A stretch of 63,211 nucleotides of DNA, counting the filler, from Reclinomonas americana ATCC 50394 (Eukaryota): NCBI GenBank assembly GCA_048213135.1. It is 56 parts of 56 records of this genome, joined end to end, with 100 filler letters (N's around TTAATTAATTAA, not from the genome) between each part and the next. Parts side by side here need not be neighbours in the genome. Positions count along the whole stretch, not along the records: positions 5,678 to 6,712 come from AFZH01026750.1; positions 6,813 to 7,846 come from AFZH01026751.1; positions 7,947 to 8,980 come from AFZH01026752.1; positions 9,081 to 10,114 come from AFZH01026753.1; positions 10,215 to 11,248 come from AFZH01026754.1; positions 11,349 to 12,382 come from AFZH01026755.1; positions 12,483 to 13,515 come from AFZH01026756.1; positions 13,616 to 14,647 come from AFZH01026757.1; 48 more parts are not named here. The stretch is one strand, 5' to 3'. This document shows positions 5,578 to 59,836 of the stretch, piece by piece. The stretch's first letter is position 1. Each line of letters starts with the position of its first letter. The notes under the pieces were generated by a model, which was given only the letters and a program-made list of their open reading frames with translations, did no database searches and was not told the DNA's origin. The position numbers and the translations under genes are program-made.

Positions 5578-7039
5578 NNNNNNNNNNNNNNNNNNNNNNN
5601 NNNNNNNNNNNNNNNNNNNNNTTAATTAATTAANNNNNNNNNNNNNNNNNNNNNNNNNNNNNNNNNNNNNNNNNNNNGACATCTTCCTCTACGCAACCAC
5701 TTCACGTGTGTGGTCTAGATTGCGCCAAACCACCTTCGGTCGCACACCGACAAATTGGTCGCGGACCACGACAGGATGCGGCAGTCTGCGGGCAGTGGAT
5801 AACATTCGATCCAGTCCTGCAGCCAGCATGCACCGCCGTGCAAGTGAGGATTACGCAGCACAACGGGAGTGCTCCATTTCACACACTCACCATGGCACCA
5901 CCAGCAGTGTAGCTGGCGAATAACCGCAGCAGCCTCCTGCGCCTCAGGGCCGTCGGCTGAGTGGAACAGCAGGTCGGCGACCACCCACAACTTCCGGCCA
6001 TTGATCTCCGCCACAGCCATTTCGAAGCCGGTTCATCGAAATGGTGAGCTGTTTGTATGCTGACATGTTGCTCGTCTCTGCGAGACCATTCTCGAGCGTG
6101 AGCACCTCGAGCGTAAACACGGCTCATCACTACCCGCATAAGCGCACCTGGTGGCGTGAGACCAACGCACGGGAAGTAGCGGGATTTTCCAGAGCGCAGC
6201 TCATCGGCCGGCCGATTGACAATCGCCAGGTGCAATGCACCTGTTGGTCGCTGCGCGCGTGTGCTCAGTGACTCTGCATCAGCGTGACAACGAATACAGT
6301 CAGTGCACGCATGCTGCTGGCAACAAACAAAGTCCACATCACTCACCCTTGAGATCATCATAGTCTGTCTTTACAAACAATACCACCACTTCGCCCGCGC
6401 CGGCCTCTGCTGCCCTGACCTCCATTGTGTCATCATACTGCAACCAAGAGAATCATTCTCTCTTAGTCTTACAACTGCGAAATGAGCAGCCGAGAACAAC
6501 AGCAGCCTACCGTCAGCGCGACACCACTCTCAGTGCCGCGAATCTGATCGTCGGTGCATTGCACAAAGGCCATCTTGCCGCCGGCAACAACATTTGTCGG
6601 AATGACGCACAGCAATGGGACGCTGCGTGGACGATCGGCGGAAAGCATGTCCACATCGTTCCATCGGAACACTGGACTGGAAACTCGTCCGAGCACCGTC
6701 CCGGGATATCGANNNNNNNNNNNNNNNNNNNNNNNNNNNNNNNNNNNNNNNNNNNNTTAATTAATTAANNNNNNNNNNNNNNNNNNNNNNNNNNNNNNNN
6801 NNNNNNNNNNNNAGGGAGAGAGAGAGAGTCTGCGAGCTAATGAAGGAAGATATGAAGAAACCAAGTTGAGCTCAAATTCACACGCCCGCGCAAACGCGCG
6901 CGAAAAATGTTGTGCGGTGGCCCTCAGCAACGGCTATTTCTCGCGCGCAAGAAACAAAAGAAATGAAGAAGAGTGGACGAGAGGGTAGAGAGAGGGAGAG
7001 GAGAGAGAGAGGGAGAGAGTGGCCCCACACAAACGCAAC

Positions 7040-7133
7040 TGACAGGCACCGCGGCCGCCACCACGCCAGACATGGCCACCATGGCCAGCAACACCAGTGC
7101 GACAAGCACACTGCGCGTTGTCTTGTTGTTCAT
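7040..7133 (-). CDS. First exon of a secreted protein (signal peptide)
   Basis: MNNKTTRSVLVALVLLAMVAMSGVVAAAVPV has a basic N-terminus and hydrophobic core; followed by GTTGCGT and pyrimidine-rich intron-like sequence. Confidence 0.6.
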
Positions 7134-7946
7134 TGTTGACTGCTCCTTTGGTCAGACGCAAGCACTGCGGTGTAACACAGAAGCGCACGATGAGAGAGCA
7201 AACAAAAGAACGCGCGCAAAGAAGAGTGGCGTGACGCGCAGAAATGTCCCTCCCACCCCACTCGGCATCACCCCATGTTTACACGAACGGTGAGACAATG
7301 CATGCGTGTGTGTGCGGTCTGTGCCTCGTGCTGCAGTTTGCACGGCGTGTACTTCTGTATGTGTGATAGCATCATATCGAGAACCAGCAGGACTGTGTTT
7401 TGGCGGACAGAGACGCGGCCTCACCGACAGCAATACGTGAAACACGAGCAGAGAATAAGGACACCCGGGTTCGTCGCTGTGGTGAAACAAGGACGAGTGG
7501 GTGGGGGAGTGTTTGTCAGTGCTCCACCGACGAACAACAAAAGTTGAAGGGGGTGCGCGGCCAAAACTCGCGTTTTCAATTGTACCCCGTACCCCGATTT
7601 TTTGGCCGCGTCTGCACCCTGTTCCCCGTCTTTTTTCTCCGTCGTGTACCGCAACCTCCGCCCTTCCTCTTCGCGACTGCCGAAGGCTATTCACTGAAGT
7701 CGTACTGTCGACTTATCAACAAGGTGCATTGCCTCTTGGTGTCGATACTTTGAGCGCACGCAGCGCAGCTTCCCGGCAGTCTGTGGGCTACTTTGCGTGG
7801 TCGTGTGAGGCGGAGACTAAGGCGGAGTGCTCTTGCACGCAGCGAANNNNNNNNNNNNNNNNNNNNNNNNNNNNNNNNNNNNNNNNNNNNTTAATTAATT
7901 AANNNNNNNNNNNNNNNNNNNNNNNNNNNNNNNNNNNNNNNNNNNN

Positions 7947-8951
7947 CGGAATCGGTGGCGACGACATGAACTGCATTTGCTGCTCCCTGGGCGGCGGCCC
8001 TGGCCGTGGTGGCGGCGACGTCTGGAACACACTCGGCGGCGAGTTGCGCAACTGCGGTCGTTTTGGCGGCGTGTGTGACTGCCGCAACGAGGCCGGTGAG
8101 GGCGGGCCTTGCGCAGCGGCAGCGGCGGCCGCAGCGCGTAGTGGTGACGACAGGCGAGTGGGCGACTGTGACGGCTGGCGAGCCGGTGATGACAGGCGTT
8201 GCTGGCGCAGGCGTTCACGGGGCGACATCATTGGTGCGCGAATCGGCGAGCGGATGCGAGTGGGCGATGCCGGTGAACCGCCGCCACCACTGGACGGTGA
8301 TGCCGCGGCGCCGTTGCTTAGTCGCCGCGCACTGCCATTCTGAGCGGCCGTGGTGGTCGTCGCTGTTGCGGAGGTCGGAGAGGCGTAAGTGCCGGCGGCG
8401 CGTGTAGGAGAGGCGGGCGACCGCGGTGACGATTGTCGTTCTCGCCGTGGTGACGGGGCGTGTGTCCGTGGTGGTGGCGGCGCCGCGGCACCCTTTTCGA
8501 GTTCGTCCACCATTTCGCGGGTCGGGGTGGGAGTGTACCGTCGGAGGCGTGCTTCCCATTTCTGGAGAACACACAACAATGAGTAAGCCTTTTTTTCTCT
8601 AGCAAGTCTCTTCACGCTCACAGCTCACCTCCAACTGCTCCTTCATCGACAGCGGCCGCAGCTCTTGGTGCGTGGGATCAAAGGCCAGCGAGGGTCGCGG
8701 CGACAGCTCGTCCACCGGTCGCGGGGGCTTCCAGGCGGAGCGCGGCGAGGTGCCGGAGCGAGGCGATGAAATGTAGGTGCCCCAGGGGGGACGCGACGAG
8801 CCGCCCGACGAGGAGGCGAGGCTCTCGAGGGTTTCGGCGGAGCTGATGCGGAGGTGTTGTTGCCAGGTTTTGGTGAATTCGCTGTGTGGGTGGTACACGT
8901 CGGCGGTCTCCGGGATGGCAATGGCGCCTTTGACGGCGGCTTCGTGGGGGT
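7947..8951 (-). CDS. Ser/Pro-rich low-complexity hypothetical protein, partial, at least 1 intron
   Basis: Two open frames (KEQLE|KWEARLRR) joined by a GTGAGC...CAG intron near 8564-8627. Confidence 0.5.
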
Positions 8952-9080
8952 CCTGAAAGGGGGAAGGGAGGGAGAGGGGTNNNNNNNNNNNNNNNNNNNN
9001 NNNNNNNNNNNNNNNNNNNNNNNNTTAATTAATTAANNNNNNNNNNNNNNNNNNNNNNNNNNNNNNNNNNNNNNNNNNNN

Positions 9081-9247
9081 GCCGCTGGTCGGTGCGCGCC
9101 CATGAGCGCACGCTGATGCCGGGCGCCCAATTGCGCCACCAGCATCTCGAAGGCTGGTACCAGTACGATCCGGCCGTGCGCACCTGGCTCGACGGCTTCC
9201 TCGACCATTGGCTGAAAGCGCCGGCCGAGCAGGATTCCATCGCGTGA
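9081..9247 (+). CDS. C-terminus of a bacterial protein, probably class I glutamine amidotransferase-like
   Basis: Frame RWSVRAHERTLMPGAQ..QHLEGWYQYDPAVRTWLDGFLDHW ends at TGA 9245-9247, overlapping the next GTG (GTGA coupling). Confidence 0.55.
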
Positions 9248-10114
9248 CTCGCACTGTCGTCGTCATCGGCGCCGGCATGGTCGGCGTCTCCTGCGCGCTC
9301 GCCTTGCAGAAGCGCGGCCTCGCGGTCACGCTGATCGACCGGCGCGAACCCGGGCGCGAGACCTCCTACGGCAATGCCGGTGTGATCAGCCGCTCGTCGA
9401 TCATGCCGCTCAACAATCCCGGCCTGTGGAAGAACCTGCCGAAATATCTCGGCAACCGGCACGCGGCGGTGCGCTACCGGCTCGGCCATCTCCTCGCCAA
9501 TCCCGGCTGGATTCTCGGATTCCTCAACGAGGCCAAGCCGGAGCGGCTCGCTCCGCGGGTCATGGCGCTGGAGAGCCTGATCGCTCCCTCCCTGCCCCTG
9601 CACAAGCGGCTGATGACCGAGGCCGGCATCGCCTGGCGCCTTCGCGACACCGGCTTCCTCGAACTCTGGCGCAGCGAGGCCGGGCGGTCCGCCGCCGAGG
9701 CGCGCCGGACTTTCCTCGAGGATCACGACGTCCGCGTCGAGGCGCTCGACCGTCAGGCGCTGTCGGCGCTGGAGCCGAGCCTGAACCCGATCTTCTCGGC
9801 GGCGCTGCATCACAAGGACAGCGCCTCGGTCGACTGGCCGGGCGCCGTGGTCGAGGCCTACGCTGCCCTGTTTGCCGCCCGCGGCGGCACGATTCTGCGC
9901 GATGAAGTCACCTCGTTGTCCAAGCAGGGCGAGGGCTGGCGCGCGACCGCCAAGGGCGCCCAGCACGACGCCGATCTCGCGGTAGTCGCGCTCGGCCCAT
10001 GGAGCGCCGACCTGCTCAAGCCGCTCGGCCTCAAGGTGCCGCTCAATGTCGAGCGTGGCTATCACCGCCACTACAAGCCGGCGCAGGGGTGCTTCCTCAA
10101 CCGGCCGATCTACG
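9244..10114 (+). CDS. Bacterial FAD-dependent oxidoreductase (D-amino acid dehydrogenase DadA-like), 5' partial
   Basis: VVVIGAGMVG Rossmann motif, ETSYGNAGVI, VVALGPWS..LL..LG, ERGYH. Confidence 0.9.
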
Positions 10115-12286: not shown

Positions 12287-12487
12287 AAGCTGACATGTGA
12301 GCCGAGCTGCTTAAAGGATGACTAACGACAAGCAGGTACCCAGATCGGCAGCAGAGAAAAGCATAATTGGAAATGACACATANNNNNNNNNNNNNNNNNN
12401 NNNNNNNNNNNNNNNNNNNNNNNNNNTTAATTAATTAANNNNNNNNNNNNNNNNNNNNNNNNNNNNNNNNNNNNNNNNNNNNCGTAC

Positions 12488-12538
<51 letters not shown>

Positions 12539-13615: not shown

Positions 13616-14638
13616 GAAGGGCGAGGCTCTGTTGCAGGGCAAGCAGGAGGCCATTGCGTTTGTGCTGCGCGCGGTGGATATCTGCGCGCGTGACAACAAG
13701 AGGTGACACTCTCTCATCTGCAGCCAATGTTTTGCGATGTAGCATCTCATTTGGTGTTACGTGGCAGGTACAACTTCCTGTTGTACAACGCCTCGGTGTT
13801 GTACTGGAGGATTGTGCGATCGTTGGTCCGCTGGGGACCTCCAGACACTTGGTGGCCTCGTTTGAGCGGGTGATCAAGGCGTTGCAGGACTCGGGATACA
13901 CGGAGCCCGAGTTCAAGCGCTGGCTCGTGCAGTGCCTCATGTATGTGAGTCTGTGTCACGAGGACGCCGGCAAGTTGGACGACGCCAACAGGTCGGCGGC
14001 TGCTGCCGTCGATCTCCTCAACAAGACCATGGCAGAGGTTAAGTGTCGGATTGCAATTGTCGGTCTTGTTTCGCAAACACGCGAACCCACGCGTTGTCTG
14101 TCTCCCCTCGTCTCCCTCTCGCTCTTGCAGGTTACGTCTGCTGCAGATCGTGGCAGTTTCGAGTCGCTGGCCAGGCAGCTGCGGCGTGTGCAGTTGCACC
14201 TGAACAGGAGCAATGCGGCGAACTTCACCAAGGTGCGAGGCGAACTGGCAGCCTCTCTCTTCTCGAAAGCGACTGCCGTCATTCTCGGTCTACGAACGTG
14301 CGTGTGTTCCTGTGTCGCCCGCATGTGCGCTGCGTGAAAACAACGACAAGGCTCACCACCCATCCCGCAACAGTGGCGTCATTGACGAGAAGAGCATCAC
14401 GGCCGAGGTGAACGACATGATCAATGTGCTCAGTGTGCCGATTGGCTCCGCTGCCGCCGCAGCTGCTGCAGCCGGTGCGAAGGTGCACCCAAGGCCCCGA
14501 AGGCGGCAGTGGTGCCGGCGCCGCCAGTGCGCCAGCAGAGGTGGACAATGAGGATTTGCGAATGGACCTGCTCTCCGAAGTCGGCTTTCTCTGCGCAATG
14601 CGCAAGGAGTACGCCTTTGCCGAGCAAATCACCAACAT
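13616..14638 (+). CDS. CFAP46: Cilia- and flagella-associated protein 46 (TTC40)-like, partial, 4 introns, one apparent frameshift
   Basis: Spliced RYNFLLYNASVLYWRIVR..G.SRHLV.SF..VIKAL matches my recollection of the CFAP46 N-terminal block (YFLVYNASVLYWQ). The frame slips near 13832. Confidence 0.75.
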
Positions 14639-15892: not shown

Positions 15893-16716
15893 ATGAGCAT
15901 GTGGGCACCATCGGCAGCTGCAATGCGGGTGTCGCGGTGGCGGAGTGTGTTGTGGGGCACACACGCGCAGCAACGCGATGTGCGCATGAACGCGAATGAT
16001 ATTCGCATCGGGCACATTCTGGAGCACGCCGGTCGCCTGTGTGTGGTCACCAAGTTCAACCATCAGAAGACGGGGCGCGGGTCGGCACACATGCAAGTGG
16101 AGATGAAGGATCTGGAGAAGGGCACAAAGATAACGGAGCGCTTCCGCCCCGCGGAGACTGTGGAAAGTTGCAACGCGCGCGCGTCTCCCCCTGCATGCAT
16201 GTAAGCGTGTGTGTGTGTTTGTGTGCACGGTCGCTCACGATTGTTTTTTCGCAGGAGTGCAACTGGAGGAGACCAAACTGACGTTCCTGTACGAAGACGA
16301 GAACTCGCACTCGCTGGTGTTTGCCGACGATGCATACGACCAAGTATTTGTGCCAGCAGACCTTGCCGGTGACGCGAAACCCTTCCTGCAGAGTGGCATG
16401 GCAGTGCAAGTGGCATTCCACGGCCAGGAGCCAGTGTCTCTGTCGCTCCCCGACACAGTCATCTGTGCGGTGGTCGAGACGCCGCAGATGAGCAAGAACG
16501 ACACCGTGACACCCACAAACAAACCGGCGGTGCTCGACAACGGAGTGAAGATCATGGTGCCGCCCTTTGTCAACGCTGGCGATCGCGTCATTGTTCGAGG
16601 TGCGAAAGCGCTGTGCGTCCGTCCCCGTCTCAACGCTCATATTCTGCTAACTGCTGTGTGCACGTGTGATCTCTGCTGCAGTGGCCGACATGACGTACAT
16701 GTCGAGAGAAAAGTAA
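15893..16716 (+). CDS. efp: Nuclear-encoded organellar (probably mitochondrial) elongation factor P, complete, 2 introns
   Basis: NANDIRIGHILE, HQKTGRGSA loop, K...RFR..E.VE, TFLY, KPAVLDNGVKIMVPPFVNAGD. Arg/Ser-rich leader. Introns 16167-16254 and 16600-16681; stop 16714-16716. Confidence 0.93.
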
Positions 16717-18755: not shown

Positions 18756-18756
18756 C

Positions 18757-21339: not shown

Positions 21340-21549
21340 GTGTGTTCTCTCTCTCTCTCTTTCTTTCTCTCCCTTCCCTATTGTTGGTTACATGTTTGCA
21401 CAAGAGTTGAGAGATTGTTTGTCTTCGTTTCACGCTCACTTTGTGTGCANNNNNNNNNNNNNNNNNNNNNNNNNNNNNNNNNNNNNNNNNNNNTTAATTA
21501 ATTAANNNNNNNNNNNNNNNNNNNNNNNNNNNNNNNNNNNNNNNNNNNN

Positions 21550-22493
21550 GAGTGGCAGTGGCAGTGGCAGTGGAGCTGCGGCGAGTGGTGAGGCTGTCGA
21601 CGATGCGTCGCGACCCAAACTGTACGACTTGAGCAATGCCGACGACTTGCGCAAGCTGCGTCTGCTGCTGGCGCAGGTGTATGTTCGCGAGGGCGATTGT
21701 TTGGTGCTCGGCAGTTGCGTGAACGGCTGCGACTTGAACTCCAGTGACGCGCATGTGCTGAGTACTGCTGCTGCAGATAATGAGGTGGCCGCCGTCGAGG
21801 AGTACAAGCGTGGTCTGGCCATTCGCGAACAATTGCTGCCGCCCAGCAGCCGATTGCTGGCCGAGTCGTTGCGTCCCTCGCTGTCAAGAAAGAGAAACCA
21901 CACACCGATGCACTGTACACCCACACGCACGCCACGCATCACACAGACACTACCAGATCGCTCTGGCTCTCGCCACCGCCAAGCGCAGTGCCGCAGCCGC
22001 CGAGCACTTTACCTCCGCTCAGGGCATTCTCAGTGCACGGCTTGCCGAGCTGAAAGGTTCGCGCACATCCTCTTGTCTTTGCCGACCTCTGATGTTCACC
22101 GACCGGACGTGCACAGCCATGGAGGCACCGGAGGCCGACGACACGGCCGAGATAGAGGATCTGGAGGCGGTGATTGTGGACCTGCGGGAGACCATTGCGT
22201 CGACACAGTCGGCCATTGCCATTGAAGAGCAGCTGCGGCGTCAGCGCGAGGCCGAGGCCGCCGAGAAGGCGCGTCGCGAGGCCGAATCTGCACGGTTGCC
22301 CGTCATCCAGCTCGGCACGTTTGCCAGCAAGAAGCGTCGCACAGGCGCCACTGGCGACAGTGCTGTCGTCACGGCAGCAGCGACCGGCGACGATGCAGGA
22401 GAGGCCGCAGCGGGCGATAGCAGCGCAGCCGGCTCGTCCAAGAAGAGGACGCACGCCGAGTCTGCAGATACGGACGCTCCCGACGAGAAATAA
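21550..22493 (+). CDS. NASP: NASP/Sim3/Hif1-like histone chaperone (SHNi-TPR), 3' part, 3 introns
   Basis: Spliced LAQVYVREGDCLVLGNNEVAAVEEYKRGLAIREQLLPPSSRLLAESHYQIALAL, EIEDLEAVIVDLRE and a basic C-terminal NLS. Introns 21714-21776, 21868-21946 and about 22057-22116. Confidence 0.82.
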
Positions 22494-39646: not shown

Positions 39647-40216
39647 CCGCGCGAACGCAACTCATCGTGGAGCGCTTCGCCGAAGGAGAGCACGATAGGA
39701 CTTCGTCGCGGCATAGGCCGCATAAGTGGGAACCGGCTGGAAGGCCAGCAGACTGGCGACGAGAAGCATCTCGCCGGAGCCTCGGCTGGCCATGTCCCGC
39801 CCGAAGACGTAGCTCAGCTCGGTCAGCGCCGTCACGTTGAGCTGGATCATCTCGGCGGTGCGCGCGAACGGCGTGTCGAGAAAGTCGCCGTGCAGGCCGA
39901 AACCCGCATTGTTGACCAGGAGATCGATCCGCAGGGCCTTCGCGTCCAGTTTCTCTTTCAAGCGGCCGGCAGCGCCGGGAGCGGAGAGGTCGACCGGCTC
40001 GACATGGATCTCGACACCGTGCTTCCGGCGAAGCTCGGAGGCGAGCCTTTCCATCGGCTCGCGTCGCCGCGCCGCGAGCACGAGATTGACTTTTCGAGCC
40101 GCCAGAAGCTCGGCGAATTCGACGCCGAGGCCGCTCGATGCGCCCGTCACAAGGGCCCATTTTCCCGAGGGCGCGTTCAAGGTGCTTCCAGCCGGGGAAC
40201 CGCTCACGTTCTGCAT
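39647..40216 (-). CDS. Bacterial short-chain dehydrogenase/reductase, 5' part, apparent +1 frameshift near 39694
   Basis: ALVTGASSGLG, LAARR, LVNNAGFG, YAATK; removing one C restores YVLSFGEALHDELR. Confidence 0.9.
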
Positions 40217-40289
40217 GTGGTGACCTTTCGAATAGATGCCCCTATGCATCGTGCGAAACCCGCGGTTCGATGACGGCGGAAGGTTGAGT

Positions 40290-40673
40290 TTAGCGTCGCG
40301 GACGGTCGCGGTAGACGGGATAGAAGACTGCGAAAGCGCCAACCGAGGTCGCCATCATGACGATGGCGAGCGAGACCGACGGCGAGAACGGCATCGTGCT
40401 CGCCAGCGTCGAACCGATGGCGGCGCTGCCCATCTGCAGGAAGCCGAGCAGGGCAGAGGCCGAGCCGGCCTGACGGCCAAAGGGCTGCAGCGCGATCGCC
40501 GTGCCGAGCGGATTGATCAGCCCCATGCCGAAGAGGACGATAGACAGTGCCGCAGTGAAGGTAAGGTAGGATGGCTGCGACGCGACCGCGATCATCGCCA
40601 GCGCGCCGGCGGCGAAGACGATCAGCCCAGCGAAGCCGGTGGTCCGGTCGCCATGGCGCCGCGCCAGCCAAGG
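40290..40673 (-). CDS. Bacterial MFS efflux transporter (Bcr/CflA-like), C-terminus
   Basis: LFGMGL.NP...A.ALQPF...AG.ASALLGFLQM and terminal TM helices. Confidence 0.85.
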   Translation of the reverse strand, partial: PWLARRHGDRTTGFAGLIVFAAGALAMIAVASQPSYLTFTAALSIVLFGMGLINPLGTAIALQPFGRQAGSASALLGFLQMGSAAIGSTLASTMPFSPSVSLAIVMMATSVGAFAVFYPVYRDRPRR

Positions 40674-41698: not shown

Positions 41699-41898
41699 GT
41701 TGCGTCGGGAGAGAGAGAGAGAGAAGGGAGAGAGAGAGGAGGGGAGGGGGGGAGGAGAGAGAGAGGAGGAGAGGAGGAGAGAGAGAGACGAGAGAGAGNN
41801 NNNNNNNNNNNNNNNNNNNNNNNNNNNNNNNNNNNNNNNNNNTTAATTAATTAANNNNNNNNNNNNNNNNNNNNNNNNNNNNNNNNNNNNNNNNNNNN

Positions 41899-42887: not shown

Positions 42888-44158
42888 GGGGAGGAGAGAG
42901 AGAGGAGGTAGGGTGGAGGAGGAGGAGGNNNNNNNNNNNNNNNNNNNNNNNNNNNNNNNNNNNNNNNNNNNNTTAATTAATTAANNNNNNNNNNNNNNNN
43001 NNNNNNNNNNNNNNNNNNNNNNNNNNNNTTGTCGCCCTTTCACGTCTGTGTGGCTGACACCATCCGATCGCAGCACGGCTCGCCGAACATTCCGTGGCAG
43101 GGGTCGAGGGCGCGGACGAGGGCGCGGTCGGGGTCGAGGCCGAGGTCGTGGTCGCGGTCGTCCACCTGGCCCGTAAATTCCCCCTCCACATGTCTGTCTC
43201 AGTTTTCTTGTCCATTACAACACATTAGCGTTCGCTTCTGCTTCTTTGGCTTTTCTTTTTCTCTCTCCACTCACACACTCACTCACGCTCAAGCAAACGT
43301 GCTCGCATGCTCATCGCACAGCCGGGCGACCGCCACACGGTGCTCCTGCGGAACCATGTTCCAGTAGCGCGAGCTAGTCGCCTGCGTGCACATGTAGTTG
43401 AGCGAGCGCGGTGCCTGCGACGGCTCCTCCACCGACTGCAACAGCGCCAGCTGCATCACATCGTGCGCCGACACACTCGTCTTGGCACGCAAATCGGCGC
43501 GCATCTGCTCACTGCAGTCGACCAGCAACTGCGCCAGACGGTCGTCGCTCATTGCCCCGCCAATCTTGTCCACGCAGTTGGCCAGTGTCGCCACGCGCAA
43601 CACGCGGTGCACTGCAAGATAAAGAGTGAGTGAGCGACTTGTCAGAGGAGCGAGAGAGAGACAAGCGCGCAACGATAGGTCGTCAAGTCGGCACTCTCTG
43701 TGCCCACTGCGGCCGCACCACCTTCGCCTCCCAGTGCGCCCACATCAGTGGCACTCACCAGCTGGCTCACCACAAGCAGCGACAACAACACCAATGTCAA
43801 CGAGTAGCGCCTGCGACACACACGCACACACACACAGTCAGTCACACGCACACAGGCACACAGGCACATGCGCGCAGAGAACTCAACAGCATCTTTTCTC
43901 AGAAAACAAAGCGCGAATGAGATCGATCCAACGTTCGTGTGGACAGACGACAAACCAGCCGGTGCTCGCGTGCCGTTGTCATCAATCATCAATGGCGAGC
44001 GCGCCCTTGCCTGCAGAAGGCAGTGTGCCGCCTGTGTACAGTGACGCACCACCAGCGGNNNNNNNNNNNNNNNNNNNNNNNNNNNNNNNNNNNNNNNNNN
44101 NNTTAATTAATTAANNNNNNNNNNNNNNNNNNNNNNNNNNNNNNNNNNNNNNNNNNNN

Positions 44159-45023
44159 CGCGCCAGTTTGTCGAACAACGAGGAAACGAGCGATGCAACG
44201 CCTTTCTCGAGGCTCGCATGCCGAAGCGTGGAGTGAAACCACAGCCGTACGTGACACCGGCCGACAAGCTCAAGTCCTTTATCGAGGACAAGTACATTCG
44301 ACGACGATGGCTCGATCCGGCATCGGCCGATGCGTTTGCCGTGTTTCTCACTCCGGGCGGAGCGCAGTCGCAGCCTGTGGCAGGAGAAGCATCATCATCC
44401 GTGCCACCACAACAGCCTGCGCCACCACCGGCAGCGGTCAATCCGTCGATTCCTCTGCCGCGTGTGGTGCTGGTGGACCAGTCCATTGCGGTGCCTGCCA
44501 ATGCGCGACCTCAGCCGGTGCCGATCAGTGCACCGCCACCCACGCCACCAGCACCACCTGCCGTCGCCACACCGTCGCCGACGCAAAAAGATTCACACGA
44601 CTCGAGTGATGAGGACGACACTAGTGAATCCAGTGACGAGGATGACGAGGAGGAGGAGGAGCGTGGAGGATCCGGAAGCGGCGTCGAGGAGCACATTCGG
44701 AAAGGATTCGATCGAGTCACCATGTTGCGTGCAGACTTTGTAGTGAGTGCACCCTTTCACGCCCACTAATTGTTGACGCTGTCAGTGTGATGCCGCGTGG
44801 GCCGTATCTGGTGTCGCCTGTGCCGCGGGCCGTTCGTCAAATGTACTTTGGCGTCCAGCACCTGCTGCAGGGCACGGTGACGGTGCGAGTGCCGGAACCC
44901 TCCGACCCGCCGTTGCCGCCCCCGCAGATGCACGATCCGCTGTACCCGTACAATGTTCACTCGTTCGCTGTGGTGCCTGGCATGCAGCGAACATCGTGGG
45001 TCCTCGCTCGAGTGGCCGACTGA
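44159..45023 (+). CDS. ArfGAP-domain protein, 3' part, intron 44724-44785
   Basis: GNERCNAFLEA...KP......FIEDKYIRRRW is the ArfGAP C-terminal motif; followed by a Pro-rich and acidic region. Confidence 0.78.
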
Positions 45024-48000
45024 CCATGTTATTGTGAAAAAAGCGACAAAACACAAGACAGCCTTCTGTACATGTTTCACTTTACTTGCATCCGTCTCAT
45101 GTCTCGTCCACGCCAGAGGATTGCGATCGACCGCTGTTGCGGCGGCGTCGCACCGTCACCGACGGTGGTGGATCGCGATAAATCAGNNNNNNNNNNNNNN
45201 NNNNNNNNNNNNNNNNNNNNNNNNNNNNNNTTAATTAATTAANNNNNNNNNNNNNNNNNNNNNNNNNNNNNNNNNNNNNNNNNNNNAAGGGGGTAGGAAG
45301 AACACCTGACGGCAAAGGACAGGCACCGAAAGCGACAAGTATGCAGAAGAGAGAGGAGGAGAGGAGAGGAGGCGAACGGACTGGAGAAGGGTCCGGAAAG
45401 AGAGAGAGAGAGAGCGAGAAAGAAAGAATGGGAAGGGACAAGTGTGCAGAAGCGAGAAAAGAGAGATAGACACACCCCGCCTCTCTCCACCCTCTCCACC
45501 CTCTCCACCCTCTCCATCACCCTCCCCTCCACACACCTCATCCGGCTGCAACGCGCCCACAATACACTCCTCCTCCGCCTGAAACTCGCGCACATACGCC
45601 TCCAACACCTTCCGTCGATGCACCAACTCCCGCGACGACGACAACCGCGCCAGCTTGTGCCACTTGCCTCGCCCAAACGCCTCCGAGACCGCCAGAGGAT
45701 CCTCCGGCTCAATGTCAGGTCGCACCGCGTGCCGCGCAATCAGCCGCTGATTGGCGTCGAAACCGCGTGGGAAGATGGAGCGAGAGGAGGATCCTGAAGA
45801 GGAGGAGTCGTCGCTGTCGAGGCCGAGCTCTTTGCGGATGAGCGAAAACATTTTTTGTGATTTGATAAACGACCGGACGCGCGAGCATGGTTTGTCCGAT
45901 CGACTGTCCACCATAAGTGTGGGAAAGAAAGTAGAAAAACCGAAGTGTGCCATTGGTCTCTGATCGTACTCTCTCACTGCATGAATCTGCAGCGATACGT
46001 GCTCGATATCGAAATCGATAATAAGAAACTTCACTGATCCATACAAGTAACAACAACAAACAAAACACGTACACAAACAACAATTCATTCACCAACAAAC
46101 AAGCAACAGCTGTCTTGATGACCAAGTTCAACCGTATCACAAATCCCTTGCAATTGTCGACAATGACGAAGGCACAGACTCCCATTTTTCTTCTCCAAAC
46201 AGTCATCTTCCCTTTCAGGAGGCAAAGCCATGCAATCGCGTACTTTACGAATCCAAACAGCAACACAACTGCATGATGATCACCAATCTTGAGGCAGCAG
46301 CAGGTTCCTTGTGTNNNNNNNNNNNNNNNNNNNNNNNNNNNNNNNNNNNNNNNNNNNNTTAATTAATTAANNNNNNNNNNNNNNNNNNNNNNNNNNNNNN
46401 NNNNNNNNNNNNNNGACACCACACAACAGAATCATCGCGTGAATGGGATGTGTGTGTGTGCACGAGTGGGCGATGTCACACACACACACACCAGCAACAT
46501 GGCAGACAGCTCGCCTGTGCTCGCCACCAACGATCGCGCTGCGGCGGTGTCTGATGAGGAGAATGCACCGCCGAGCAGCAGTGGTCCATCGACCGAGTCG
46601 CGCACTGCAGAGGCCTCTGCTGCTGTTGTTGTTGTTGTGGTTGTTGTCGTGCGAGAGTGGCGACTGCTTTCGTCGCCATCGTGATCGACAAAGGCAGCGA
46701 GTGCCGATACGCCACGACGATAGGCGTGACGAGGATCGCTGCTCTGCATGCTCTCTTCTTGAAAAGATGGTTGTCCTGCGACGTTTTTCGATCGACGTCG
46801 GTGCCAACGTGCTGCAAAACGCCCAAGTCCTCACTGACGCCTGTCAGCCGCCGGGAGGTCAAGGTTGACCAAAAACGTGTGTGTTATTCTACATTTAGTG
46901 GCGAGACGAGAAAATGGTCCTCCGCCGGAACGATGAGCGTTCGCCCTCGTCGAAGAAGAGCTGCATGGCCTTGCGAAACCTGCATACAGTCGATCGATAT
47001 CGACGTCGTGTGAGTTGCAGCCGATATGCTGAGCAGGGGGAAAAGAGATCGCTCGACTCAACTCCTCGTACGTTAGCTCCTCTGCGCTGCCGCCGGCTGT
47101 CATTAGCCGCATGAATTCGTACTCGACACTGTACGTTGTCACTCGGGCGATCAGAATCAAGCGACTGCAAAGCACATTGCTGCGTATCCTCGAACCGTAA
47201 AGGCGTGAGAATGACCTTGTCCGAGTGCCTCATCGCGTTGCGCAACACCAGCAATGCCTGTGTCACCCGAGAGACAAAAACGATATATCAGTTGCAAGGC
47301 AGCGATCGCCCGATCCCGACACCCCATTCCATACCTCGTCGGCACTGATGGTACCGCTCTTGTCCATGTCGGCGGCCTCAAACATGACTGGAAGGAGAAC
47401 AATGAACACAACCGCGAGAGTGAGACAGGCCAGCATGCAAGCNNNNNNNNNNNNNNNNNNNNNNNNNNNNNNNNNNNNNNNNNNNNTTAATTAATTAANN
47501 NNNNNNNNNNNNNNNNNNNNNNNNNNNNNNNNNNNNNNNNNNCACGGCCGCCTGCATGTGCCGTCGCATGCCCACCTTTCAGTTGAGCGGCGACGTCTCG
47601 GAACTGTCGCAGCTCGCATGAACACGCGCCATCGTGACTGCGGCGTGCTTGTGAATGTTTTTGTGAGTGGGATTTTGTGTCTGCCACTCGTTGTGTTCCT
47701 GCGTTTGAGTCTCCTTTGTCTCTCTCATTGTGAAGGATACATGAAATGGATGAGTAAACAAATAGCAGGTCTGTATTGCGCAGTTGCTGAACCACGCAGA
47801 CAGTCACTACCGCTTCTATTCCTTGCTTTTTAGATCATACATCAATGACAGAGGGTCAGAAGACAGTACTCACAGTTTCATCTCACGCAAAGATCAATAG
47901 CGCAGTATCGCACGTGTCGCTAACACAGCAATTCAAACGACATCCGCACCGCGAAGTCATAAAGCGCGATTTCTATGAGCCAGTGCGCAGTGATCACTCG

Positions 48001-48670: not shown

Positions 48671-49191
48671 TGATGCATGATTGGACGCAACGAGCGAGAA
48701 GCGATTGCGCATCAGCTTACGCCGGGGCTCATCAATGGTGAAGGTCTTGGCCAGCGGGGTGTTCTTCCTCTCCTTCTTCTTGCCCTCAATGGCCACCTTC
48801 TTCACCCTGAGGGCGGCAACAAAAATTTGTAAGGACCACATGTCGCACTCACCACACTCAACTCACTCACTCGCTCACTCACACAAGCCACCACCACGAA
48901 AATGCACATGAACAGCACATCACAGAGTCACGCACAGAGAGAGACAGCGCACAGTGTGCGACAGTGTGTGCGCGCGACAGTGCGTGAGTGTGCATGTGCA
49001 CATGTGACCTCGCGCGCCCCACTCTTCCCGCTCACACGGTCTCCTCACACACTCTGCACTCTCTCCCACGCTCACAAAGTACGCAACTTGTGATAGCGGC
49101 GGCGCTTGAGCGAATCCGAGCGGCCGTAGCGCTCGATGCCCTTGATGATGTTCGGGTTGCGCGTGCGCCCCTTCTTCTGTGCGTCAGCCAT
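48671..49191 (-). CDS. RPL6: 60S ribosomal protein L6 (eL6), 5' part, intron 48807-49087
   Basis: RNPNIIKGIERYGRS...KRR.Y.K matches the eL6 N-terminal domain; the spliced continuation is Lys/Arg-rich. Confidence 0.8.
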
Positions 49192-49634: not shown

Positions 49635-50354
49635 GTTGCGTATGCAGTGACTGAAGAAGAAGAGAGAAGAGAGCAGAGTGAGAGAGAGAGCAAGAAGANN
49701 NNNNNNNNNNNNNNNNNNNNNNNNNNNNNNNNNNNNNNNNNNTTAATTAATTAANNNNNNNNNNNNNNNNNNNNNNNNNNNNNNNNNNNNNNNNNNNNAA
49801 AGGAGTGTGCATGAGTGTGAACCTGCAGCAATCGTATCGTGTGCGTCGCGCACTCACTATATTCAGTGCATTCGTTCTGACCGCCACACGCCTGCAGCGA
49901 CGCCAAAATCAACAAACACACAACAACGCTATCATCATCATCACCACAGCTTGAAGCGACTGAAGAAGCTCTTCTTTTCCTCCGGTTGTCTGTGGAAGGG
50001 GGGAAGGGCGAAGGGGGGAAAGGGGGAGGGAGTGAGTGATTATGAGAGGCAAAGAGGGAATGAGCGAACGCGGAAGTCGCAGTCATCGAAGGAAACGCGA
50101 GACAGAAGGGAAAGAGAAATGAGGCATGGAGAGGAGACACTGAGTGAGTGCGGAAGATCACACATGTCAGCAAGGTCATAACACCGTGCTGCTCAGAGGT
50201 CGCGAGACAATGGGAAGTGGGATGGACACGAGAAAGTGAGTGTGAGCCGAAACGCGCACGCATCAGCAAAGTCTGAAAGGCTCACGAAATATGTCACAGG
50301 TGGCACGGCACAGGAGAAGGGGACAGTACGCGAGAGGAGGAGATAGGGAGGAAA

Positions 50355-50758: not shown

Positions 50759-50811
<53 letters not shown>

Positions 50812-51019
50812 AGAAAGAAAGAAAGNNNNNNNNNNNNNNNNNNNNNNNNNNNNNNNNNNNNNNNNNNNNTTAATTAATTAANNNNNNNNNNNNNNNNNNN
50901 NNNNNNNNNNNNNNNNNNNNNNNNNTCGCCACCACCACAAGTGTACCGCTGCAGTTCTGCACAATTGCACAAGTCGTTAGAAGTGCTGATGAGACTGTGC
51001 TTCATGGTGTGCACCGGAT

Positions 51020-51953
51020 ACACACCGCATTCGAAGACAGCACCGCTGCTGCAGAGTCGCCGCTGGTGGACAAGTCGAAAAAGTTGGCTGCATGACGACG
51101 ACCGCGGGTTAGAGACATGTAAGATGCTCTAAACATGAGGGCGACGCAACTTCCCGTCAGAGAGACAAGTTGCCACGATCGCCGGTGGATGGTAGTCGGC
51201 GACACTGCTGAAACAGTCATTGTGGCTGTATGACCCGCACCCAACACAGTCGTCAGTGACCACAAGGAAGAAATGGTGGTACCCTTCGCTGCGCCCGTCA
51301 CTCACCTCGAGCAGTGATCAACGGCTGCGCCTGTTCGATAAACGAGCTTGCGGACACTGGCATGTGACACACGGCCATGGGTGCCATCAACGCTCCCGTG
51401 CCAGCAGTGACACTTGCCACAGTCAACGCTCCACTCGCCACACTCTTGGCGCCGATGCTGATGAGCGAGGTCGCCACAGCACTGCAGTCGCTCGCCGGTA
51501 CAGTGCACGTTAGAGAGGAGCTCGACAGGAACGTGCTGCGCTCCGCCATGTAGTTATTTAACACCTGCGCCGACGTCAACGTGCTGCTGTGGATACGCAG
51601 CCGAGCGATTGTCAGCGTGCCACGCCGAGCCGCTTCCGGACTTGCGTCGCCGTTGTACTGCGACGCGAGAGTGATGGGTGTGGACGCGGAGATATTGGGG
51701 TTCTTGATTCCCGAATTCGACAAAAATCCGTCAGCATACACACGCTCTGTTGTCCCATCCGATGTAAACACCAAGTGGTGCCACGTGCCGGCCGCGGGCA
51801 CTGGTGATCCCCACGGCATGTCATCATTAAAATGAACAACTGCGCCCCACACAATATGGCTGCCGTAATAAAATGCAAAATTTTGCGAGTTGGTACGAAC
51901 TCCCCACGCGACGATTGTTTCCTCCGACGCCACAGCTGGATTCAACACCCACG
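51020..51953 (-). CDS. LamG/ConA-like jelly-roll plus IPT/TIG domain surface protein, intron-containing fragment
   Basis: GTWHHLVFTSDG..RVYADG and LRIH...LT..QV..NY; after a GTGAGT intron, VSAVSPTT...VSLTG|TNF (IPT motif completed by removing intron 51088-51150). Confidence 0.8.
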
Positions 51954-52142: not shown

Positions 52143-52437
52143 TAAACAGAGAGAGAGAGATGGAAAGAGAGTGTGTGTGAGTAAGTCATGATTGATGTAA
52201 TAATGGAAAAATAAAAGCGCGCACGCAACAGCCGCAGAACCTGCAGTGGGAGGCGCAGGCGGAAGCACCTTGGCTGCGCGCGTGCACACACGCACACCGA
52301 GTGAGCGTGAGTGTGAAAGATGAAAGTCACTCCTCCAGTCATGACACGCAACTGCGATCACCCGACGCATTGACGCCAAACGCGCGCAACTTGGCCTCCG
52401 CCTTGCGGATCTCCTCATCCATCTCACGATTGCTCAT
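52143..52437 (-). CDS. 5' exons of a hypothetical protein
   Basis: MSNREMDEEIRKAEAKLRAFGVNASGDR|TKVLPPAPPTA; intron 52274-52352 (GTTGCGT...CAG). Confidence 0.55.
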
Positions 52438-53080: not shown

Positions 53081-53252
53081 NNNNNNNNNNNNNNNNNNNN
53101 NNNNNNNNNNNNNNNNNNNNNNNNTTAATTAATTAANNNNNNNNNNNNNNNNNNNNNNNNNNNNNNNNNNNNNNNNNNNNCCCTTCCCCTCCCCCTTCCC
53201 TTCATCCCCCTTCCCCCTTCTCCTCACCACCTTCACCTTGCCACCCCCACAG

Positions 53253-54208: not shown

Positions 54209-54308
54209 NNNNNNNNNNNNNNNNNNNNNNNNNNNNNNNNNNNNNNNNNNNNTTAATTAATTAANNNNNNNNNNNNNNNNNNNNNNNNNNNNNNNNNNNN
54301 NNNNNNNN

Positions 54309-55334: not shown

Positions 55335-55434
55335 NNNNNNNNNNNNNNNNNNNNNNNNNNNNNNNNNNNNNNNNNNNNTTAATTAATTAANNNNNNNNNN
55401 NNNNNNNNNNNNNNNNNNNNNNNNNNNNNNNNNN

Positions 55435-56457
55435 ACGATCAAACTTCTCGCGTGCCAAGCCCATCAGCATTGACACCTCCTCGGCCGAGCGCTTGAAATT
55501 CTCAATCGAAAACGCGTACACGGTGATGGCCTCGACGCCCAGCTGCAGGCACCACTCCAGCGCCTGTCGAATGCGCGCATGAGACCAAGCGGAAGGAGAT
55601 GGAGCGTGAGAGAGCAACCCCACCTGTTCCAGTGTCTTGTACCCAAACTTGTGACCGGCTGTCCGCGACATGTGACGCATTTCAGCCCACCGACGATTCC
55701 CATCCATGATGAACGCAATGTGGCGTGGAATCGGACTGCGTGGAGAGAGATAGAGAGAGGTGAGACACTCGACACAGTGCGTGAGAAGGGGCAAGGGACA
55801 CACGCACCCACACATCAACACACGACGACAGAGCCACGATAGCGCCCACTGCGCATACATGGCCAACCACACCAGCAAGGCCAGTACACGCGACATGCCA
55901 GGCGTGGAGGACACCTGTTCCCACACTGCACGCATGATTCGCCACAACATTGCAAGCACTCCACGGTGCGGCTTCTTCTTCTGCTGCTTGCCCTCTTCTT
56001 CTTCCTCTTCTTCCTCGTCCTCGTCCTCCTCCTCCCTCTCTTCTCCACTGTGCGCAGTGGCAGCAGTGGTCGAGTGAGGAGGCGGGGGAGGCGGTGGAGG
56101 CGGAGTTGGGTCGTCCTCCAGCAAGTACTCTGCGGCCTCGTCGCCTGTCAGACTCCATGTGTCGGAGGAGGAGGCCGAGGCAGTGCTGTTGGCCGTCTCG
56201 GTGACGTAAAAGGCGGCGGCAGAGGGCTCGGGCGTGGGGAGGGTGGTGTCCTCGGAGGATTGCTGTGCTTGTTGTTGTTGTTGTTGTGAGGGTGGTTGGT
56301 GTATGGGTTGTTGGTGTGGTGTGCCGGTGACGAGCATCAGCACGAGCAGTGAGACGAGCAGCGAGGTGCCCCAGAGTGGGAGAGAGCCGAGTCGGTTCTC
56401 CATGTGCGTGATGCACTGATGCGGTGATGAGTTGTCGGACATCGCTCGCGGCTCCAT
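55435..56457 (-). CDS. DHDDS: cis-prenyltransferase (dehydrodolichyl diphosphate synthase-like), 5' part, 2 introns
   Basis: [21 protein letters not shown]...[27 protein letters not shown]. Confidence 0.92.
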
Positions 56458-56789
56458 TGANNNNNNNNNNNNNNNNNNNNNNNNNNNNNNNNNNNNNNNN
56501 NNNNTTAATTAATTAANNNNNNNNNNNNNNNNNNNNNNNNNNNNNNNNNNNNNNNNNNNNCCCTTTCAGTTTCCTCGCTCTTTCGTTCTTGAAGACTCTC
56601 AATGTCTGCTGCTGCTCCTCCTGCTGCTCCTGCTGCTGGTAGCGCTTCGGCGCCTGCTCATGGGGTGAGTTGAAGTTGCTCATCATAAAGTGTGTGTGTC
56701 GGTGTGTGTGCGTGTGTGTGGCACAGGAGGGCGCATGCGTCTGAGTGTGCGCTTCGATGATGCGTGCGCGAGTGAGTGTGAGCGTGACT

Positions 56790-57584
56790 TGAACAGCAAG
56801 ATCCGTGTCGCGCGTCGCAATCGGTCGCCAAGCAACTTGTTCATGCATCTGTTTGTGCGGGAGCGGCCAAACCGTCCAGTGTACATGGATGTGCTACGCA
56901 AGGCAATGGCCGCGAACAAGAACTTACGACCGTTTTGGCCGCAGGCGGAGTCAGTGATGGAGGTGGATTCGCCGAGCGCAGCGGTTGCGTGACTTGTCTC
57001 TCTTTGTCTCTCTCTCTCTCTCTCTTCTCTGATTACTGTAACATGCACGCAGTTTCTGGCTCTGTCTCGCCCGCTCGAGAACTTGCTCAACACGGCAAAC
57101 GCCAGTCAGTCGCAGACGGTCCAGGTGGGCGCCACCAGACTCAGTGAGCTGCTCGGCACACTGCGAACTGTGAAGGGACAGGTAAGACCAGTGAGGAATG
57201 CGATTTTCGGGGACTTGCTTACTGTACACGGGGGGTGAGGTGTAGACGGAGCACATACGTCGCGAGTCGGCCGCCCAAGCGCGTGAACTGCGCGATAAAT
57301 CGGAGTCGCTGGAACGAGAGCATTGGCGGAGCGCCAGCGTGCTGCCGTGGCGGTGGAAGCAGAGCGCAAGCGTGCCGCTGAGGCAGTGCAAGATCTGAAT
57401 GAGGAGCGCAAGCGTGCTGCCGTGGCGGTGGAAGCGGAGCGCAAGCGTGCCGCTGAGGCAGTGCAAGATCTGAATGAGGAGCGCAAGCGTGCCACTGAGG
57501 CGGTGGAAGCGGAGCGCAAGCGTGCCGCTGAGGCAGTGCAAGATCTGAAGGAGGAGCGCAAGCGTGCCACTGAGGCGGTGGAAG
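56790..57584 (+). CDS. Coiled-coil protein with 25-aa (75-nt) tandem repeats, intron-containing
   Basis: AVEAERKRAAEAVQDLNEERKRA(A/T)(V/E) repeated more than 3 times from 57340; upstream intron 56984-57052. Confidence 0.65.
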
Positions 57585-57705
57585 NNNNNNNNNNNNNNNN
57601 NNNNNNNNNNNNNNNNNNNNNNNNNNNNTTAATTAATTAANNNNNNNNNNNNNNNNNNNNNNNNNNNNNNNNNNNNNNNNNNNNCTCCTTCTTCTTCTTC
57701 TTCTC

Positions 57706-57746
<41 letters not shown>

Positions 57747-58810
57747 CACACACTCACCAAGAAGCGAATGTCGACCGATCCACCATACGAGCTGCCTGTT
57801 GCCATTGAGCCAGATGTTGTGAGCGACAGAGCAACACATGTTTCCTCTTTCTTCCTCTGACTGAACTCACCGCTGAGCGGCACCACCATGCACGTTCCGT
57901 GCAACACATCATCTGCATCAGTAGACACGCACGCAAACACAGTTTGACTTCTTCTCTCCACCACCACCACGAAGGAAGCATTCAGCAGGACTGTGTCGCT
58001 CTCACCTCCATGCACCGCCGCCGCAGCTGCGCGAGTGAAGAAGAAGAGTGTGTCAGTCAAGGGGGTCTTTGATGCACATGGCGCACAAAAGCGACGACAA
58101 CGACGAATGCAGAGAAGAAAAAGAACAGAGAGGTCATTACCCGCTCACCAAAGCACAGCACCACAGCCACAACCAGAATCACAAAGCGAGGCGACATTCT
58201 CTCTCTTGAGCACACAAAAAGCACAATGATCGGAAAATTCAATCTGTCCTCACTCTCGGCACACACTCTTCCCCTCTTCGTTCTCTCCTCTCTCCCTCAC
58301 CCTCCACGCACAAGTGTTCCACATCCCTGGATCGACAACGCTGAGGACAACAAGCTCGCCGACGAACAGTGTGCCCAGAGCGATGGCCAGCACGCGCAGC
58401 ACCAGCTCGACGAACCGGTCTCGATCGCGCGCCATGTGTGACGAGCACACAAGCACACACGCGCGCGACGAGGACGACGAGGAGGGGAAAAAAGGAATTT
58501 CGACCGTTTCAATCAATTTTCGCGGGAATTGACGAGAAAAGACAACACACGATGAGTCGGGAGACGACGTCGCCGGTGGGAGCGAGTGTGCTTAGTGGCG
58601 GGCAGCCGCTGTTTCTGCCGTCGGGGTCGGTGGATCACTCGAATAACTTTCGGGTGTTTCATCGGTGAGGGAAGGGAGAAGATGTGGGAGAAGGGGAGAA
58701 AAGGGAGAGGNNNNNNNNNNNNNNNNNNNNNNNNNNNNNNNNNNNNNNNNNNNNTTAATTAATTAANNNNNNNNNNNNNNNNNNNNNNNNNNNNNNNNNN
58801 NNNNNNNNNN

Positions 58811-59836
58811 GCTACTAATGGGCCTGTTCTACATTGCCACCATCATCCTGTCGCTGGTCACTGGCGTCATTTTCGGCGTCACCGGTCGCAAGATTGTGAT
58901 GCGTCTGCGCATCACCCTCATGCGCAACTACTTGGCGCAGAGTATGGCGTTCTTCGACTCGAAATCGGTCGGCGAGCTGCTTTCCCGCATGTTGCGTCTC
59001 TTGCCTTTCTCTCTCTCTTTTCTTCATTCCGGTCCCACTCACATCGCGTCTTCCGCGTGCGCAGCTCCGTTGATGTGGCACAGCTGCAGACCATTACCAC
59101 GACGTTCTCCAATCTGCTGACCATTGTGGCGACAGTCATCATCTCCATCATCTGGATGATCAAGTACAGTGTCATCATGAGCGCCATTGTGCTGGCCACC
59201 ACCCCGTTCCTCGTCGCCTTTTCGCTGTTCTTCGGCAATCTCATCCGCAAGAAGACCACGCTCGCCTATGATGTGCGTGGAGCCAAATCCTCTCTCATGG
59301 CCAAGTGTGTCGCATGCACTCATGCTCCCTTGTTTCGCACGCAGGTGTTGGCCGAGCAACAGCAGGTGGCCAACGAAGTTCTCACTAACATCCGCACCGT
59401 GCGTGCCTACGACCAGGAGCGTCGTGAGGGCAACCGATACATGGCCGTGACAGTGCGAGTGTATCGCATCGGTTTGACGCTTGTCGCATACTCGCAGGTT
59501 TGCTTGCTTTCTCTCCCTTTCTCTCGTTTCCTCCTCGTCGCTCACTGCCATGCACAGATCTACGGCCTGTGTGTGCTGGTCGTCTCGTACGCCGCCACGC
59601 TGTTGGTGTTCTACTTTGGCGCCCAAGAAGTCATTCAGTCCAATCTGCAGTACGGCGACTTGCTGGCCTTTATCAGTTACGCACACGCGCACACGTGCAC
59701 CCATGTGTGCAACCTTTCTTGCTCACATCTCTCACTTTTTTGCCAACAGCCTACGCCGGCAAAATCTCGGCGGCCGTCAAGGGTCTCTCGCAAATGTACA
59801 CGTCCCTCATGAAGACTGTTGGCGGAACGCAGGTGC
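58811..59836 (+). CDS. ABCB-family ABC transporter transmembrane domain, partial, 4 introns
   Basis: G.KIV.RLR..L...L.Q...FFD...GELLSRI..D, ANEVL.NIRTVRAY..E, L.FYFGA..V......GDLLAFI.Y. Introns include 58991-59064 and 59676-59749. Confidence 0.93.

Follow-up and report, generated by a model that had tools for sequence, protein, structure and literature searches.

Departures from the usual pairing between U1 small nuclear RNA (snRNA) and the 5' splice site have been described in human genes and in several protists, and they are the closest precedents for the donors beginning with GTT, chiefly GTTGCGT, that we describe here in a 63,211-base stretch of draft sequence (hereafter the window) from the free-living, intron-rich protist Reclinomonas americana. 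At human shifted-register sites, U1 pairs one base downstream of its usual position and cleavage is kept at GU; the 'Shifted +1' oligonucleotide validated in that system carries an A at -1 (PMC4856993). Among protists, Entamoeba uses GUUUGU(U) donors together with a co-evolved U1 whose 5' end reads AACAAAC, Mastigamoeba balamuthi uses GUGCGC donors with a U1 reading ACGUAC, the Mamiellales combine a GYGCGY consensus with a standard U1, and both standard and modified U1 variants have been reported in Physarum (10.1101/2022.06.08.495308). Atypical protist donor consensus sequences, with or without co-evolution of U1, are thus already known.

The R. americana donors resemble human shifted-register sites (Roca and Krainer 2009, via PMC4856993) in that both begin GU-AG introns, have U or another non-purine at +3, bring the usual +5 G to +6 and share the A at -1. 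They differ from them in several respects: human shifted sites are rare exceptions, whereas about a third of donors and the commonest donor word are involved here; the core is GCG in place of the human AAG, and canonical U1 pairs poorly with GCG; and the protist class is known from its sequence, human sites of this kind having the proof of suppressor U1. With the human bulge +2/+3 sites (Roca et al. 2012, via PMC4856993) the class shares an extra U after GU and the displacement of downstream positions by one, but the human sites keep the pairing of exonic -1G and number only 68 predictions (PMC4856993), whereas -1G is lost in R. americana. Entamoeba is similar in being a protist with U at +3 as a rule and a donor conserved to +7, and some GTTTGY donors occur in the window; unlike R. 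americana, it is intron-poor and has a single consensus (88-90% GUUUGU), as against two classes and a GCG core. The donor cores of Mastigamoeba and the Mamiellales are likewise GC-rich, with +4 occupied by C, and a Mastigamoeba-type U1, having G opposite this C, would in a shifted register pair with the +5C of GUUGCGU as well, yet their consensus lies in the ordinary register without an extra U, and the passages of 10.1101/2022.06.08.495308 used here report no displaced class. A literature search that lay largely outside the subscription journals returned no report of a displaced donor class beside a standard-register class at such frequency, although the organism's own genome paper, if any, could describe it.

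GTTGCGT, together with GTTGCGC, GTTGCAA, GTTGAGT, GTTAAGT, GTTACGC and GTTTGY, forms a genuine and abundant 5' splice-site class of U2-type GT-AG introns, and of all donor words in the sample GTTGCGT is the most frequent. The window consists of 56 unrelated contigs (1,024-1,036 bases each) arranged in order of length, with N44-TTAATTAATTAA-N44 linkers between them (e.g. 1037-1136 and 21450-21549) that no feature can cross; because the contigs are separate and unlinked, it comes close to sampling a draft eukaryotic assembly at random. Four bacterial-looking contigs (2, 3, 8 and 35) were excluded from donor statistics. Counted on both strands, GTTGCGT is present in 23 copies where 10.46 +/- 3.28 are expected from 100 dinucleotide shuffles, none of which reached 23. 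The observation behind the original prediction is confirmed and proves stronger than first put; the 11 GTTGCGT sites and four variants that it listed were all found where it had placed them.

Plain k-mer enrichment of GT-words was not used, as GT microsatellites swamp the counts. A motif-blind coding-drop test was applied, in which each GT was scored for coding potential in the 90 bases upstream versus the 60 bases downstream in the same frame, with a three-periodic coding model whose training set was 25 exon pieces supported by homology (1,373 codons). Strong drops were seen at 162 of the 6,115 GT sites with enough flank in the window and at 8 of 18 GTTGCGT sites (binomial p 8e-9), which made GTTGCGT the most enriched GT-heptamer; at other lengths, GTTGCG scored 11/50 and GTTGC 15/168. 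The median drop was 14-17 units at GTTGCGT versus 2.3 for all GT (Mann-Whitney p 2e-4). When the test was repeated on the 46 contigs without training exons, 4 of 12 GTTGCGT sites (p 1e-4) and 7 of 37 GTTGCG sites were strong, against a base rate of 2.2%. The original prediction had described the class as the organism's normal GTGCGT donor plus one T, but GTGCGT shows no donor signal in this test (strong at 4/66 sites, and at 1/47 on held-out contigs), and it is GTTGCGT itself that leads. A floating TGCGT motif at +4 (GT.TGCGT) was also considered and was rejected, none of 28 such sites being strong.

The size of the class was estimated with a small dynamic-programming (DP) gene finder that knew the donor only as GT, followed by expectation-maximization (EM) from a flat donor matrix. 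Without any donor model (iteration 0), 15 of 47 predicted donors were GTT; EM yielded 52 donors, of which 24 were GTT and 21 GTG, and GTTGCG emerged unseeded. Donor information reached 2.39 bits on the real data versus 0.87-1.71 bits in six EM runs on permuted contexts, which gave 0-13 donors with T at +3, although 14-19 of the 47-51 donors picked in these runs still had GTT as their true context. In four Pfam-anchored genes chosen regardless of donor type (contigs 52, 14, 32 and 49), 4 of 11 donors were GTT. The by-eye tally of 15/70 in the original prediction proves nothing on its own, because T follows GT with a background probability of 0.195 in the window, which equals that share; its proposal of a mainstream class nonetheless holds, the GTT share being at least as large in the motif-blind, EM and anchored counts. 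GTT donors make up about a third of donors, a share given with wide error because the gene finder is imperfect and donors may be misplaced in T-rich sequence.

Two genes fix GTT junctions by homology. The ABCB-like gene of contig 52 (58811-59836) has 11 relatives in an exhaustive HMMER search with its open reading frame (ORF), to which a cluster look-up added P0012, a protein of 682 residues that is the full-length form of the closest of them. A five-exon model is stop-free and aligns with P0012 as one ungapped block of 247 residues, 147 of them identical, and the four introns are therefore fixed to the base. The intron at 58991 is the sole GT..AG solution between anchored exons, its junction is gapless in P0012 and in 6/6 covering homologues, and the Pfam ABC_membrane coordinates abut across it. 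At intron 2 (59273), P0001 has a 24-residue gap, and the junction is gapless in 5/5 covering homologues and P0012; at intron 3 (59498), a 20-residue gap is seen in P0002, P0003 and P0007, the junction being gapless in 4/6 covering homologues and P0012. P0001 parts company with P0012, its full-length counterpart, right at junction 3, as though the relative's sequence there were unspliced. The read-through of the intron in P0001 begins V-C-V, hence the DNA GTNTGYGT. Junction 4 (59676) is gapless in P0008, P0009 and P0011 (3/5 covering homologues) and in P0012, the exceptions being P0003 and P0007, which carry insertions of 26 and 53 residues exactly there. Such insertions and divergences at introns 3 and 4 would be expected if these ORFs had been called on unspliced DNA with introns at the same places, and the intron positions thus seem to be conserved in the relatives. 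Other searches added little: the ABCB ORF had 0 PDB matches at 1e-5, a word-indexed protein search returned 1 match at near lengths and 0 at longer ones, and a metagenome scan with exon 2 gave 593 pattern matches and 0 relatives.

The second gene (15986-16716, + strand) encodes a bacterial-type elongation factor P (EF-P) and is interrupted by introns. Enumeration of GT..AG pairs leaves 16167 as the one donor that can join the Pfam-anchored exons, and the three-exon model is identical to P0013 at 91/182 positions. Both junctions are gapless in the alignments with P0013 and with P0014, and P0013 also conserves R, the residue at the junction of intron 1; the gapless alignment fixes the introns at 16167-16254 and 16600-16681. 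An in-frame extension precedes the first domain and suggests that this EF-P may be targeted to an organelle. The spliced models of contig 52 (four introns) and EF-P (two introns) are thus stop-free, with gapless homologue alignment across every junction. Of the other junctions that the original prediction had regarded as fixed by protein sequence, the one attributed to NASP (21868) is weakly placed: the only PDB matches of the upstream exon are three human NASP chains (E 1.5-2.2), in an alignment that stops at the donor, and a rival donor at 21883 is also frame-feasible. PDB searches of the flanking exons returned nothing for exon 1 and only an irrelevant GldL (E 1.7) for exon 3, and no match in the PDB search extended across the 21714 junction. 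The 'IPT' label given to a further junction lacks Pfam backing: Pfam finds no IPT/TIG domain at E <= 0.1 on the ORF concerned (51005-51301, - strand).

Comparison of the GTT and non-GTT donors reveals two coexisting classes, AG/GTG.G, which is strong on the exon side, and N/GTTGCGT, which lacks -1G, frequently has -1A and is strong from +3 to +7 (the slash marks the exon-intron boundary). The non-GTT donors (n=28) have -2A in 19 and -1G in 22 cases and a weak intron side (GTG, with +5G in 18), whereas the GTT donors (n=25) are strong on the intron side, with +4G in 16, +5C in 15, +6G in 14 and +7T in 11. Exonic -1G falls to 6/25 in the GTT class from 22/28 in the other (Fisher p 1e-4), and -1A rises to 10/25 from 1/28 (p 0.0015); restricting the comparison to high-confidence GTTGCGT and anchored non-GTT sites gives -1G in 1/9 versus 5/7 (p 0.035). 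The difference at -1 arose against the bias of the model, because the donor matrix shared by both classes favoured -1G. T-inserted versions of several donor types are found (GTTGCGT/C, GTTGAGT, GTTAAGT and GTTACGC). Introns of the GTT class are GT-AG introns of 60-90 bases with CAG ends, and CTCAC, CTAAC and CTAAT branch-point-like motifs, as well as CAG ends, were seen by eye in the listed introns. CGCAG acceptors are frequent in both donor classes (e.g. 59059-59064, 57047-57052, 52274-52279 on the - strand, and 59339-59344), and the acceptor context is G+C-rich instead of a long pyrimidine tract.

We propose that on the GTT class the 5' end of U1 would pair one nucleotide further downstream than on the AG/GT class, so that -1A, +1G and +3 to +7 would take the place of -2A, -1G and +2 to +6. 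Cleavage would stay at GU, its position being fixed at a later step by U6, U5 and Prp8, just as at human shifted-register sites. The loss of -1G and gain of -1A fit such a one-base displacement, so that the shifted register put forward in the original prediction is partly supported. In RNAduplex runs with a textbook canonical U1 5' end, from which the organism's own may differ, gca/GUUGCGU pairs best in the +1 register, at only -2.1 kcal/mol, and the conserved +5C would be mismatched in that register. Because +5C would face a U in canonical U1, the lineage's U1 is probably also altered at that position, for example to the G reported for Mastigamoeba. We put the probability that the GTT class is explained by pairing in a displaced register, with a base change in U1 that assists it, at roughly 0.55, and rate an altered U1 and a pure shift as about equally likely.

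Several points weigh against this explanation or against the class on which it is built. The canonical-U1 duplexes are weak (-2.1 kcal/mol as above for gca/GUUGCGU and +0.5 for cau/GUUGCGU, versus about -11.5 for AG/GURAG sites), the preference for -1A is moderate and -1T is also common (6/25), and position -2 of the GTT class (A 11, C 8) is unlike position -3 of the other class (G 14, C 9). The gene finder read through the donor at 59273 and put 21868 fifteen bases off, the GTT share could rise from donors misplaced inside T-rich introns, and EM is able to inflate a motif, the class tables resting on our own gene finder. The coding model was partly trained on exons beside GTT donors, for which the held-out test is a partial remedy. 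Finally, only four genes, with 11 donors between them, are anchored by homology.

A co-evolved or second U1, whose 5' end would be complementary to GUUGCGU in the ordinary register with no shift at all, is a close alternative that we entertain tentatively; the AG/GTG.G class would then be served by standard U1 or by weak pairing. That GTTGCGT is the strongest donor word when its supposed parent GTGCGT has no donor signal speaks for this, as do the seven conserved intron positions, including a +5C that canonical U1 cannot pair, and the precedents of Entamoeba, Mastigamoeba and Physarum (10.1101/2022.06.08.495308). By itself, though, it gives no account of the enrichment of -1A, and the T-inserted forms GTTAAGT, GTTGAGT and GTTACGC are easier to reconcile with a register shift than with a single fixed complement. 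Retention of the ordinary register with the extra U at +2/+3 bulged out appears unlikely to us. This bulged register has been validated in human cells (PMC4856993), and RNAduplex does fold gag/GUUAAGU on canonical U1 with a one-base bulge (-8.8 kcal/mol), but for GUUGCGU it picks the shifted, not the bulged, duplex. A bulge would leave the exon pairing in place, so that -1G would be expected, and yet -1G is what the GTT class loses; together with the gain of -1A, this argues against it. In humans, moreover, bulges are rare, with 68 bulge +2/+3 and 51 bulge +3 sites among 10,248 predicted noncanonical sites (PMC4856993).

That there is no real class, and that mispredicted junctions, composition or an extra-T homopolymer error in a low-coverage draft account for the GTT donors, is very improbable. 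The match between background and the earlier tally would agree with such an artefact, as would the fact that the contigs are draft pieces of about 1 kb and that 41699, 49635 and 51150 stay unverified, but homologue alignments cross four GTT junctions gaplessly, the word is enriched two-fold over shuffles with the coding-drop support given above, also on held-out contigs, and sequencing error would not change the exonic -1 base. We attach a similarly slight probability to the GTTGCGT introns being copies of a mobile introner with fixed ends, or U12-type introns, as their common 5' heptamer and frequent CGCAG ends might suggest. When eight GTTGCGT introns were aligned, columns 1-7 and the final CAG were the only conserved blocks, mean column identity was 46% and intron lengths ranged from 62 to 79 nucleotides (nt); CGCAG, besides, ends introns of the non-GTT class too. 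With no shared blocks beyond the heptamer and the final CAG, the introner idea was rejected. The U12-type donor consensus is RTATCCTT, and the donors here, which read GTTGCGT followed by G or C, are unlike it.

Table 1. Introns and donor sites in the window, with the donor heptamer and the basis of each call
Feature	Coordinates	Strand	Donor	Length (nt)	Remarks
EF-P intron 1	16167..16254	+	GTTGCAA	88	phase 1
EF-P intron 2	16600..16681	+	GTGCGAA (non-GTT)	82	also predicted by DP
NASP-like intron 1	21714..21776	+	GTTGCGT	63	in frame; EM gene model; upstream coding score 12.6
NASP-like intron 2	21868..21946	+	GTTGCGT	79	phase 2; strong coding drop
NASP-like intron 3	22057..22116	+	GTTCGCG	60	DP prediction; strong coding drop
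ABCB-like intron 1	58991..59064	+	GTTGCGT	74	phase 2
ABCB-like intron 2	59273..59344	+	GTGCGTG (non-GTT)	72	
ABCB-like intron 3	59498..59557	+	GTTTGCT	60	
ABCB-like intron 4	59676..59749	+	GTTACGC	74	phase 1
Intron after ArfGap-like exon	44724..44785	+	GTTGCGT	62	EM gene model; strong coding drop; Pfam ArfGap match weak
Intron, gene of unknown family	56984..57052	+	GTTGCGT	69	EM model; strong held-out coding drop
Intron missed by the original prediction	61531..61605	-	GTTGCGT	75	EM model; strong held-out coding drop
Intron	52274..52352	-	GTTGCGT	79	strong held-out coding drop; acceptor GCGCAG from frame analysis
RPL6-like intron after first exon	48807..49087	-	GTTGCGT		acceptor uncertain; DP prediction; strong coding drop
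Donor after signal-peptide-like first exon	7033..7039	-	GTTGCGT		strong held-out coding drop; acceptor not fixed
Candidate intron	51088..51150	-	GTTGCGT	63	by eye, CTAAC-like motif and ATGCAG end
Predicted intron	14038..14130	+	GTTAAGT	93	EM gene model only
Predicted intron	43612..43673	-	GTTGCGC	62	DP prediction; strong held-out coding drop
Predicted intron, EF-hand gene	46980..47062	-	GTTGAGT	83	DP; strong coding drop; EF-hand upstream
Candidate donor of the original prediction	41699..41705	+	GTTGCGT		followed by GA repeat to contig end; upstream coding score -1.7
Candidate donor of the original prediction	49635..49641	+	GTTGCGT		64 nt from contig end, too near for coding-drop test

The individual sites (Table 1) differ in how firmly they are placed. 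Among the donors put forward originally, 58991, 16167 and 59676 are fixed by homologues and 7039(-), 44724, 49087(-), 52352(-) and 56984 coincide with strong coding drops; 21868 has the weak homology described above, and 21714 and 14038 come from the gene model only. The sites at 41699, 49635 and 51150(-) are unverified and 52816 (GTTGAAT) found no support: 41699 has no acceptor inside its contig, and 51150(-) shows neither an upstream coding signal in the coding model nor a Pfam domain. Neither do all 11 GTTGCGT donors lie on separate genes, since 21714 and 21868 belong to one gene; 49087 and 49635 share a contig on opposite strands. At 49087(-), where the flanking exon had been used for training, a GTGAGCG 13 nt further downstream could be the donor instead, and the RPL6 label corresponds to a Pfam match below its cut-off (21.8 bits vs 25). 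The donor at 61605(-) is flanked by an open frame of 151 codons upstream and 156 downstream. Possible further GTTGCGT donors beyond the original list are found at 52229(-), 52891 and 38741(-).

Other features of the window bear on the assembly and its gene content. Many contigs carry microsatellites of the (GA)n/(TC)n or (GT)n type (e.g. 41706-41798, 36256-36310 and the 5578 region); these frequently lie at contig ends, where they probably interrupted the assembly. The contigs at 1-1036 and 1137-2172 are 97.6% identical, without gaps, across their full 1,036 bases, and represent allelic copies or else a recent duplication whose copies were assembled apart. Contigs that look bacterial, with 66-69% G+C and long ORFs free of introns, lie at 3409-4444, 9081-10114 and 39647-40673, and perhaps at 2273-3308 and 59937-60961. 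They encode a DAO oxidoreductase, an S58 peptidase together with a glyoxalase, and a transporter with a short-chain dehydrogenase after it, and may be contaminants of the draft or the result of recent transfers. One copy of GTTGCGT, at 39661(-), is inside the contig at 39647-40673. The contig at 28340-29369 has only 35% G+C, versus 50-69% in all others, and may be organellar or foreign DNA. At 26079-26990 (+), two adjacent ORFs match the homeodomain (E 9e-11 and 3e-11) and probably belong to a single gene as separate exons or form a tandem pair. For EF-Ts, at 36626-36702 (+), enumeration found no frame-keeping GT..AG intron between the two Pfam-anchored exons, which could reflect a draft frameshift or a non-canonical intron. 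Pfam searches of 150 short ORFs gave one useful match, and Rfam at its gathering threshold gave 0 matches in the 63,211-base window.

How 5' splice sites are defined is still an open question, the relative weight of U1 pairing and of the later check by U6, U5 and Prp8 being debated. So is the co-evolution of snRNAs with the splice-site consensus, for which there are few clear cases, Entamoeba and Mastigamoeba among them (10.1101/2022.06.08.495308). Speculatively, R. americana may run one spliceosome in two registers genome-wide, with U1 docking on N/GUUGCGU, one nucleotide downstream of its usual place, in about a third of introns and the cut still made at GU, such that register and cleavage would be uncoupled as a normal, selected state, possibly with a U1 end changed for the GCG core. 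With one donor class leaning on the exonic AG and the other on a displaced intron core, this free-living, intron-rich protist seems to offer a natural experiment on these questions. On a practical level, training gene finders on GTRAGT-type donors will lead them to misplace a large fraction of the junctions of this genome.

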